DNA from: Escherichia coli
GTDB lineage: Bacteria; Pseudomonadota; Gammaproteobacteria; Enterobacterales; Enterobacteriaceae
Reading direction: 5' to 3' (one strand)
Length of the DNA stretch: 64,000 nucleotides
Assembly (NCBI RefSeq): GCF_045037415.1
Contig: NZ_CP173438.1
A program made the position numbers and the translations under genes. The notes under the pieces were generated by a model that was not told the origin of the DNA, did no database searches, and saw only the letters and a program-made list of their open reading frames with translations. Numbering within the stretch: the stretch's first letter is position 1; every line of letters begins with the position of its first letter. Of the stretch, positions 9,550 through 13,564 are shown in pieces.

Positions 9550-10338
<789 letters not shown>

Positions 10339-10366
10339 GTGGCTTTCGAAATGGCGGGACAGAACT

Positions 10367-10777
10367 TTACTGGCTCGCCGCAGCCAACTCTTCTTCTGAC
10401 ACCCCGGTAAAGCGCATGATGTCTGCAAGAGGGACTCCGGATTCAAGCATTATTTTTGCTATATGCAAGGCTTTGGATTGTTCCCCTTCCTGCCGCAATC
10501 TTTCCGCAATAGTCATTAAACTCTCCTTGTGTTTTGGTGAACGTTCGGCCACACCATCGATAAAATCGTTAAAACGTACCGCGTCGCCGGTTTGCAGTAT
10601 GTAATTAAACAGCCCTTTGATTTGTCTGTCATTTGCGTATCCACTACTTAATAAGCAGGCCATTTGCTCTACCAGTCCTATCAGATCGCGTTGACGAATA
10701 TGTTTTTGAATTAACTCCAGCAGCGCCATGCTCGCGTGCCGTCTCCGGTTGGCGTAAAAAGAGTTTGAACAGCGCAT
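10367..10777 (-). pseudogene. rpnA: 5'-truncated remnant of rpnA (yhgA), Rpn/YhgA-like recombination-promoting nuclease
   Basis: 136 aa frame resembling only the C-terminal part of Rpn/YhgA-like proteins (...LRQEGEQSKALHIAKIMLESGVPLADIMRFTGVSEEEL...); the bioH-feoC interval is only about 660 bp, too short for the recalled ~292 aa gene. Confidence 0.55.
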
Positions 10778-10940
10778 CGTGTGGGGTGGAACTCTGCTTT
10801 TTGCTCATGGCGTTCCTTCACCTGTTATTTGAATGCCGCGACTCTACGCGCCACTCCACACCTGTGCATTAGCGAGTTTTCATCCCAGCGAGACGCTTTC
10901 AGAGGAACTTACGTCGCGCTGCTATGGAAAGCCGCACGCA

Positions 10941-10974
10941 AAAAAGCCCGGATGCAAACGCATACCGGGCTTTC
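10941..10974 (-). terminator. Rho-independent terminator downstream of feoC
   Basis: aagcccgg-atgcaaacgcat-accgggctt hairpin preceded on the plus strand by an A-run (T-run on the minus strand). Confidence 0.6.
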
Positions 10975-10995
10975 AAAACAGGCAGTGAAACAAGG

Positions 10996-11232
10996 TTAAC
11001 GCAACGCCCACCATTCGTGCAGACAGGCTTTTCCTTCCGGGCAGCTTTTACAACTGCCGGAAAGACAGCCGTCAGGTTCTTCCTGAATCCGCACTGCTTT
11101 TCCCATACTTTCTAGCTGTTTCAGCATGGCGTTAATCATTGGCTGCGGAGTGTTCAGTGTCTGGCTAATCTGGGCCGCTTCCATACGGCCCCGTAATGCC
11201 AGTAAATCACGCACTTGAATGAGCGAAGCCAT
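10996..11232 (-). CDS. feoC: Ferrous iron transport protein FeoC
   Basis: 78 aa product starting [15 protein letters not shown] within the listed 92 aa frame; winged-helix protein with Cys cluster; directly downstream of feoB. Confidence 0.85.
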
Positions 11233-11242
11233 TGTCGTGTCC

Positions 11243-13564
11243 TTAGTGGCAATCGCCAGTGGTACTGGCCGCACAGCAACTGCTTACCGATTTGCGCGTT
11301 GCCAGCAGTTCGATATCCACCCGGCTACGCGCGCGACGCAGCAAACCGATAACCACGATGTTAAACAGAATAACCGCCAGAATGCATACCAGGCTGTAGG
11401 TTGGATGCTGGCTGTAGCTGGCGATCTGATAGAACAATGTTGCCAGCGAGTAAGCGATATTCAGCCCCCACAGAATGGAGAAGCCCATCCAGCCACGGCT
11501 TGATTCACGGGCGATGGCTCCCATCACCGAGATACATGGTACATACAGCAGGACGAAAATCAGGTAGCTGTATGCGGCAGCTGCGCTACCGAATTTCTGA
11601 TCCATCACGCCCATCGCTCCGGTACCCATTTCGCCGTCGCCTTTGCTTGCTTCAATGGGGTTCATCAGTACGCTAAGGCTGAAGGTGTCTTTCAGGCTCT
11701 GCCAGGTTTCATCTACCGCACTGAACAGCTCTTCACCGAGGTTAAATTCCGCCGGATTGAACTCTTCGTCCTGAATATTTTCTGCGGTGTAGAGGGTGTT
11801 GAGCGTACCCACCACCACTTCTTTCGCCATGGCACCTGTAAACAGGCCAACCGTTGCCTGCCAGTTATCTTCATGTACGCCAATCGGCTTGAAGACCGGG
11901 GTGATCACCCGGCTGACGGAAGCCAGCGCCGAGTCGTTGATGTTATCGACGATTTTCCCGCTCAATGAGAAGCTGTTGAAGGCGCTCAGGAAAATGCTGA
12001 CGATGATAATCACTTTACCAGCACGCAGAACGAAGCCTTTCAGACGCTGCCAGGTCTGGATAATCAGGCTTTTAACGTGGGGTACATGGTAGACCGGCAG
12101 CTCCATGACAAACGGCGTCGCTTCACCGCGCATGATGGTGTACTTGAGCATCAGGCCAGTCAGCACCGCCATTACGATACCCAGCATATACAGCGAGAAG
12201 ACCGCCAGCGCACCGTTCTGCCCGAAGAAGGCAGCCGCGAATACTGCGAAGATAGCCAGACGCGCGCCGCAGGACATAAACGGTGCCATCATGATGGTCA
12301 TCAGACGTTCACGCGGTGCATCAAGCGTACGTGCGCCCATTACCGACGGTACGTTACAACCGAAACCAACGATCAGCGGTACAAAGGATTTCCCCGGCAA
12401 GCCCAGCGCCTGCATCAGACGGTCCATCACAAACGCCGCACGCGCCATATAGCCGGAGTCCTCAAGGAAGGAGAGGAACAGGTACATCATGCCGATCTGC
12501 GGCACCAGTGGCAGCACGGTGTTAATACCGCCGCCCAGGCCTTGGGCGAGGAAGATAGTCAGCCAGTCCGGGAAGTGGAGCGTGTAGCCAATCCACTGAA
12601 TACCATGCACAAAGAGTGCTACGGAGCCGACGTCAAACAGCGGCTGTAACGCCCCGCCGATGTTGATAGCCAGCAAGAACATCAGGTACATCACAAAGAG
12701 GAAAATCGGCAGACCGAGGAAACGGTTGAGCACGATTTTATCTACCGCAGTGGTGAAACGGCTGGGTTCTGCCGTCAGGGTGTTGCTTACCACATCACAG
12801 ATGGCAGCAATGCACTGGTAACGCGCATCGGCAATGTGCAGCGCCGGATCGTCCATCTCATTACGCAGACGGGCGAGGGCGGCATCCAGATGCTGCGACG
12901 CTTCACCGGCGTAGGCGCGGCTGTAGATATCGCCTTCCAGCATTTGCAGGCCCAGCCAGCGACGTTGTTTCAGCGGGATGTCGGAAGGCATCACTTTTGC
13001 CAGTGAATCTGCTTCGTTGAGCAGCGGCTGAGCGTAATGCACCAGTTCCACATTCTCGTTAGCTTTATAGCGATCAATCGCCAGCTTGAGCGCTTCAATA
13101 CCGCGACCACGGGTTGAAACCAGCGGGATCACCGGGCAGCCAAGACGCGCCGACAGAGCATCAATTTCAATACGAATATTTTGCTTCTCGGCAATGTCGA
13201 GCATGTTCAGCGCCACGATGCAGGGAATGCCGAGTTCCAACAGTTGCAGCGTCAGGTACAGGTTACGCTCAAGGTTAGACGCATCCACCACGTTAATCAG
13301 CAGGTCTGCGTCGCCACTCAAAATGTAGTGACAGGCGATTTGCTCATCGAGCGAGGTCTGCGATGAGATGGTGGTCAGAGAATAGGTGCCGGGCAGGTCC
13401 ACCAGCGTGACCTGATGATCGGTGGTGGAGAATTGCCCTTCTTTACGTTCGACGGTAACGCCAGCCCAGTTACCTACACGCTGACGTGAGCCAGTAAGCT
13501 GGTTAAATAACGTTGTCTTGCCAGAATTTGGATTACCAATTAAGCCAATGGTTAATTTTTTCAT
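11243..13564 (-). CDS. feoB: Ferrous iron transporter FeoB (GTPase plus permease)
   Basis: Start trimmed to [18 protein letters not shown] (G1 P-loop); 773 aa; polytopic C-terminal domain. Confidence 0.95.

Follow-up and report, generated by a model that had tools for sequence, protein, structure and literature searches.

The window analyzed here is a stretch of 64,000 nucleotides of Escherichia coli DNA (RefSeq assembly GCF_045037415.1, contig NZ_CP173438.1). Within it, bioH (9568-10338, plus strand) and feoC (10996-11232, minus strand), the latter adjoined by feoB from 11243 on the minus strand, border an interval that holds a remnant of rpnA (yhgA). The gene order nfuA-gntX-bioH-rpnA-feoC-feoB is the same in the K-12 strain J53, where rpnA encodes a protein of 292 amino acids, and the remnant, lying between bioH and feoC, occupies a position orthologous to that of the intact gene. 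The bioH-feoC interval (10339-10995) measured 657 bp in the window and 1109 bp in K-12 (J53). Using a multiple alignment that comprised the alleles of K-12, NC101, cS91a, SK1144 and NCTC11151, the difference of 452 bp was resolved into a 437-bp gap in rpnA, a 14-bp gap upstream of the gene and one extra base in K-12. The first-pass annotation of this DNA had estimated the interval at about 660 bp, had placed an Rpn-family gene of about 292 codons between bioH and feoC of K-12 and had postulated a deletion of roughly 0.4-0.5 kb. All three estimates agree with these measurements, and the length of the K-12 interval rules out a reference that is equally short.

The same annotation had described rpnA as a 5'-truncated remnant, a description that the alignments contradict. 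The SD-like sequence of the full-length gene, GAAGGAA (10813-10819, minus strand), is invariant across the alignments, and the retained 5' end of rpnA (10733-10808, minus strand) consists of the ATG at 10808-10806 and codons 1-26, as seen in the ORF list, by tblastn and by translation. The missing DNA is internal and corresponds to nucleotides 78-514 of the K-12 coding sequence, an out-of-frame deletion of 437 bp by which codons 27-172 were lost. Its joint lies between 10732 and 10731 on the minus strand, which reads GACGGCACGCGA up to the joint and GCATGGCG beyond it. On the far side of the joint, codons 173-243, which encode the tail of the Transposase_31 domain and a linker, are retained at 10517-10729 (minus strand), as indicated by alignment, Pfam and tblastn. 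In tblastn searches of the window with K-12 RpnA, residues 1-29 matched 10808-10722 and residues 169-292 matched 10741-10370 with 96% identity; beyond these two remnant pieces no further Rpn copy was detected in the window.

Two open reading frames cross the joint on the minus strand. A 54-aa ORF (10644-10808) has the authentic rpnA ATG as its start codon, and its residues 1-25 are MSKKQSSTPHDALFKLFLRQPETAR; codon 26 is a hybrid formed at the joint, GAT (Asp) in K-12 being GAG (Glu) in the window, after which the native frame shifts and terminates at 10646-10644, after 54 codons in all. The longer ORF, of 136 aa (10367-10777), begins with 16 residues, MRCSNSFYANRRRHAS, that are translated from frame-shifted N-terminal DNA, and contains genuine RpnA sequence only from M173 (10729) on. 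The claim that only a C-terminal-like frame of 136 aa was left thus holds for the existence of that frame and fails for its first 16 residues, which are not RpnA. Likewise, it was correct that no upstream frame encodes the nuclease domain, which is gone, although an upstream frame is present in the form of the ORF at 10644-10808.

The nearest intact alleles found were those of strains NCTC11151 and FDAARGOS_1257, which have feoC and an insertion between feoB and feoC (described below) in common with the window. The left flank of the 437-bp joint is the same as in these two strains up to CGCGA, and the right flank reads GCATGG in the window and GTATGG in the intact form, a T to C change two bases from the joint. 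Comparison of the flanks in K-12, VTB96959v and NCTC11151 revealed no usable microhomology at the joint, for which a check had been proposed with the first-pass annotation. Placements of the joint in a CGA repeat or in a GCAC repeat were considered and rejected because a blunt joint accompanied by the single T to C substitution explains the sequence with fewer changes than either.

RpnA_L, the full-length product of rpnA, is a toxic DNA endonuclease of the PD-(D/E)XK type (PMC5350276, PMC10400941). The RpnA mutants D11A, D63A, E82A and Q84K lose all activity (PMC5350276, Kingston 2017), R94A abolishes recombination, and D165 sits in a conserved PDDEI motif (PMC5350276). Residues D63, E82, Q84, R94 and D165 all fall within the deleted block, and only D11 is left, in the 54-aa peptide. 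In agreement with this, Pfam PF04754 (Transposase_31) covered residues 8-209 of K-12 RpnA and only profile positions 161-202 of 203 were matched in the remnant; the RpnA equivalog model NF007361 of NCBIfam scored K-12 RpnA at 695 bits over its full length and the 136-aa frame at 258 bits over model positions 169-292 only, against a cut-off of 583. An uninterrupted ORF from the native rpnA ATG is absent, the frame being broken by the 437-bp deletion. With the catalytic residues lying within the deleted codons and the reading frame disrupted, the window allele cannot give rise to a nuclease, and rpnA in the window is a pseudogene whose toxin-nuclease has lost its catalytic core. The earlier statement that the nuclease is inactivated is thus correct for the toxin part of the gene; it does not extend to the whole locus, where 49 codons at the 3' end form an intact gene.

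This gene is rpnA_S. The rpn genes are toxin-antitoxin genes-within-genes, in which an internal promoter gives a short transcript with an internal start (PMC10400941, Zhong 2023). In K-12, the internal start of RpnA_S at M244 was shown experimentally and its RBS lies in codons K240/E241; the substitutions K240R, E241D and M244L together abolish RpnA_S (PMC10400941). The product is a three-helix protein of 49 aa that binds and blocks the toxic RpnA_L (PMC10400941). In the window the rpnA_S ORF, of 49 codons plus stop and corresponding to M244-Q292 of RpnA, is intact at 10367-10516 (minus strand) and translates as MTIAERLRQEGEQSKALHIAKIMLESGVPLADIMRFTGVSEEELAAASQ. It is preceded by the SD sequence AAGGAG in codons K240/E241 (10523-10528, minus strand), which lies in CACAAGGAGAGTTTAATG at 10514-10531, and the native sequence further upstream is preserved for 215 nt, as far as the deletion joint. 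The predicted product was identical at 48 of 49 positions to the crystallised RpnA_S, chain A of PDB 7TH0, deposited as 'Recombination-promoting nuclease RpnA' (E 7e-24). Pfam PF14261 (DUF4351) gave no match at E <= 0.01 with either the 49-aa or the 136-aa protein. As to whether the 136-aa frame is a complete independent gene, it is not, but its last 49 codons are the intact rpnA_S, which in K-12 is transcribed and translated on its own (PMC10400941). The cognate RpnA_L is gone from the locus and each genome holds a single rpnA-type copy, leaving RpnA_S with no partner to act on. We consider it very probable, and hold this with high confidence, that the rpnA remnant of this ST131-type allele is a dead toxin joined to an intact, partnerless antitoxin minigene.

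The expression signals of rpnA_S were inspected in the sequence. A candidate sigma-70 promoter, consisting of ATGACA and TTTAAT separated by a 17-nt spacer, was recognized by inspection at 10604-10632 (minus strand) and is kept in all alleles examined except those with the 254-bp deletion described below. A stringent promoter scan of 10300-11050 returned no sigma-70 site; the scan misses the ATGACA-TTTAAT candidate because it accepts only -10 hexamers whose second base is A. The region upstream of rpnA_S (10517-10729) may hold its internal promoter. A literature search for a published coordinate of the internal transcription start of rpnA_S found none, and rpnA/yhgA is absent from the supplements of Adams et al. 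In K-12, rpnD is a pseudogene with an internal stop and RpnD_S is still detected (preprint SI). By analogy, RpnA_S is probably still made from the window allele.

The 14-bp deletion, by which AAAATGCAACCCTT was lost, lies in the feoC-rpnA spacer, 115-128 nt before the rpnA ATG, and its joint falls between 10923 and 10922 on the minus strand. Further upstream, the terminator-like hairpin and T-run of the feoABC operon (10939-10973, minus strand; AAAGCCCGGTATGCGTTTGCATCCGGGCTTTTTTG) was kept in all alleles aligned. An 11-bp insertion was observed between feoB and feoC at 11233-11243, where the window reads CAC TAA GGACACGACA ATG and K-12 and NC101 show the overlap TAATG. The feoB stop is at 11243-11245 and the feoC ATG at 11232-11230; the insertion places a new AAGGA shortly before feoC and would abolish the coupling of stop and start codon by overlap. 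Of the 5426 genomes, 813 have this insertion allele, which is thus commoner than the 437-bp deletion; it occurs also in the intact-rpnA strains NCTC11151 and FDAARGOS_1257 and in strain A20, which has the 254-bp deletion. At the opposite end of the interval, a hairpin formed by GGCGGGAC and CTGGCTCGCC and followed by a T-rich tail (10352-10396, plus strand) extends across the 28-bp bioH-rpnA spacer and the last rpnA codons; it could be a weak bioH terminator placed inside the coding end of rpnA_S, with a fold z-score of -1.87 relative to shuffled sequence.

The distribution of the alleles was determined in 5426 complete E. coli genomes. The segment absent in both deletion types was found in 4664 of these (86%) and the segment absent only in the window type in 4858, so that about 567 genomes, in which both segments are gone, carry the 437-bp deletion and about 194 the 254-bp type. 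At >=99% identity, the exact window allele with its 437-bp and 14-bp deletions was present in 427 genomes, and the 437-bp deletion without the 14-bp one in 140 others; within the rpnA remnant, a single difference separates these two sub-alleles. An exact copy of the 136-aa ORF is found on at least 1000 contigs. The 164-bp segment containing rpnA_S was found in 5424 of the 5426 genomes, at one place per genome; about 760 genomes are without the toxin core, and loss of the rpnA_S DNA was not seen among them.

The window allele was found in EC958, JJ1886, JJ1887 and strains named O25b:H4-ST131; in EC958 and JJ1886 it is identical to that of the window. The form with the 437-bp deletion and without the 14-bp deletion was found in SE15 and in further strains labelled ST131. 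The 437-bp deletion is typical of the E. coli ST131 lineage. EC958 and JJ1886, which belong to ST131 clade C, share it with SE15, of clade A; on this assignment the 437-bp deletion would predate the diversification of ST131, and the 14-bp deletion would have arisen afterwards inside the lineage.

A second deletion allele was observed in CFT073, Nissle 1917, ABU 83972, ATCC 25922, LF82, NRG 857C and NC101. It lacks 254 bp, nucleotides 39-292 of the coding sequence, and keeps the ATG, rpnA_S and the PDDEI region; it is likewise out of frame and annotated as a pseudogene. In NCTC11151 the deleted segment lies between two copies of the 8-bp direct repeat GATGCGCT, which is a signature of slippage or microhomology. 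Because each allele keeps DNA that the other lacks, the 437-bp and 254-bp deletions are independent events with different boundaries. The alleles with the 254-bp deletion that were examined have ATGGCA in place of the candidate -35 hexamer ATGACA, and NC101 has AAGGTG in place of the rpnA_S RBS AAGGAG, which A20 keeps; in NC101 the two sites are at alignment columns 939 and 834. From these substitutions, the expression signals of rpnA_S may be decaying in the 254-bp lineage.

A further variant of the locus was observed in about 850 genomes that fell in the 90-95% identity band of the survey. In these, VTB96959v and NCTC11151 included, a 206-bp cassette (1640-1860 in the locus sequence of VTB96959v; 292-510 in that of NCTC11151) lies in the rpnA_S region, near the position that corresponds to 10470 of the window. 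It gives an RpnA of 297 aa with a different C-terminal domain and strands the 3' end of the old rpnA_S, with a 32-codon ORF (MTDAEREYLI...), downstream. The arrangement resembles the C-terminal swapping and the RpnSs pattern described by Zhong et al. at rpnC and rpnE, here at rpnA.

In the window allele, a 437-bp internal deletion, out of frame, has taken codons 27-172 and left the native start to yield only the 54-aa scrap peptide; a separate deletion of 14 bp has taken intergenic sequence upstream; and complete rpnA_S, its RBS and the 215 nt upstream of it remain as an orphan antitoxin. If the antitoxin went first, the toxin would be left unchecked, so the toxin-first pattern fits toxin-antitoxin logic, and the antitoxin end may have survived as decay of the toxin first is the only safe order. 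The verdict that rpnA is a pseudogene depends neither on this nor on the probable expression of RpnA_S.

Other accounts of the locus were weighed against this one. That the remnant is truncated at its 5' end with only a C-terminal frame left would agree with the RefSeq description of the locus as 'missing N-terminus' and with the fact that the longest ORF, that of 136 aa, begins only after the native ATG. However, the native SD, the ATG and 26 codons at 10733-10819 align base for base with intact alleles and the missing nucleotides 78-514 of the coding sequence are internal, which makes such a truncation very improbable. There is next to no probability that the short form is ancestral, K-12 having gained 437 bp, or that it is an assembly artefact, since the two ends of a single domain are found in the remnant in separate reading frames, intact rpnA occurs across lineages and in 86% of genomes, the nearest intact allele has the same left flank, and the exact sequence recurs in 427 independent complete assemblies with the 136-aa ORF on at least 1000 contigs. 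Retention of the 3' part for the sake of the neighbor bioH, which is convergent and ends 28 bp away, so that an overlapping 3' end, terminator or transcript would select against deletions, appears distinctly unlikely. In MG1655, rpnA and bioH have been catalogued as a convergent excludon (PMC12288877), and a weak hairpin with a T-rich tail is present at 10352-10396; against this, the fold is only marginally better than that of shuffled sequence (z = -1.87), and the explanation would account for about 30-60 bp of what was kept, not for 363 bp.

The alternative that selection maintains the remnant as a stand-alone antitoxin, acting for example against incoming RpnA_L or as an HTH regulator, which would make it a streamlined gene and no relic, is unlikely on present evidence, though it stands ahead of the other alternatives. 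The rpnA_S ORF, its RBS and upstream sequence are intact, 5424 of the 5426 genomes have the S segment, the toxin core was lost and rpnA_S left untouched in each of two independent deletions (437 bp in ST131 and 254 bp in the CFT073/Nissle type), and stand-alone RpnS genes are known elsewhere (PMC10400941). However, each RpnS acts on its cognate RpnL only (PMC10400941) and no second rpnA-type copy exists, there being one place per genome; only two events lie behind the pattern; no match to Pfam DUF4351 was obtained; and the RBS AAGGTG of NC101 and the -35 sequence ATGGCA of the 254-bp alleles suggest decay in that lineage. Although the core is lost in about 760 genomes and the S segment in none, this contrast has no statistical weight as evidence of selection, since it reflects essentially two inherited deletions, and the conservation of rpnA_S within ST131 says nothing about constraint because ST131 is a young clone. 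Truncated Rpn ORFs in a protein cluster were also considered as a sign of recurrent toxin loss and set aside, since membership of the cluster is itself based on the C-terminal part, so that retention of this part is built in.

The dead toxin with its partnerless antitoxin, which remains our reading of the locus, can be compared with known members of the family. The window allele shares with K-12 rpnA the locus, the start codon and the first 25 codons, with 96% identity over codons 173-292; L282V is the only difference from K-12 in the rpnA_S ORF and RBS. In contrast to K-12 rpnA, the window allele is without codons 27-172 and the 14 bp upstream, its frame is broken, and it has no PD-(D/E)XK core and no RpnA_L. 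In K-12 rpnD, as in the window, the toxin frame is dead and the small-protein gene is kept; there, however, a stop codon interrupts the gene and all the DNA remains, whereas in the window the DNA of the core is physically deleted. The 254-bp allele is similar in that an out-of-frame deletion of the core left the ATG and rpnA_S in a gene annotated as a pseudogene, but its boundaries differ and mark an independent event. Stand-alone RpnSs or DUF4351 (PF14261) genes, such as ypaA (rpnE_Ss), also represent a small RpnS outside an intact rpn gene, but these originated when a copy was duplicated or inserted behind an rpn gene that stayed intact, whereas rpnA_S of the window became separate by decay of its host gene and has no PF14261 match.

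In RefSeq (PGAP) this exact sequence already has the status of a pseudogene and the label 'Rpn family recombination-promoting nuclease/putative transposase; incomplete; missing N-terminus'. Elsewhere the 136-aa ORF is named 'transposase' or, in some genomes, 'Rpn/YhgA-type helix-turn-helix domain-containing protein', and the 49-aa rpnA_S is annotated in none of these sources. The public annotation is thus misleading, missing both the anatomy of the internal deletion and the intact rpnA_S. A literature search for a paper on the ST131 rpnA allele found none and returned only an unrelated SNP mention linking rpnA and ST131. The locus is an ordinary lineage pseudogene that was already annotated as such, in RefSeq for hundreds of ST131 genomes, and the point of mild interest is the intact orphan antitoxin.

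As lineage markers, the deletion of 437 bp cleanly identifies ST131 and that of 14 bp a sub-lineage of it, and the 254-bp deletion marks the CFT073/Nissle group. The Rpn family has been linked to anti-phage defence, and two major extraintestinal pathogenic lineages are without the RpnA_L nuclease and retain its antitoxin, providing a natural test case for an orphan RpnS. It is quite unlikely, in our estimation, that rpnA_S is an expressed stand-alone gene under selection in ST131 and, independently, in the CFT073/Nissle group, as an anti-addiction or immunity factor against incoming RpnA_L or as an HTH regulator. If this were true, orphan small-protein genes would have one of their origins in intragenic toxin-antitoxin genes whose toxin part decays first.
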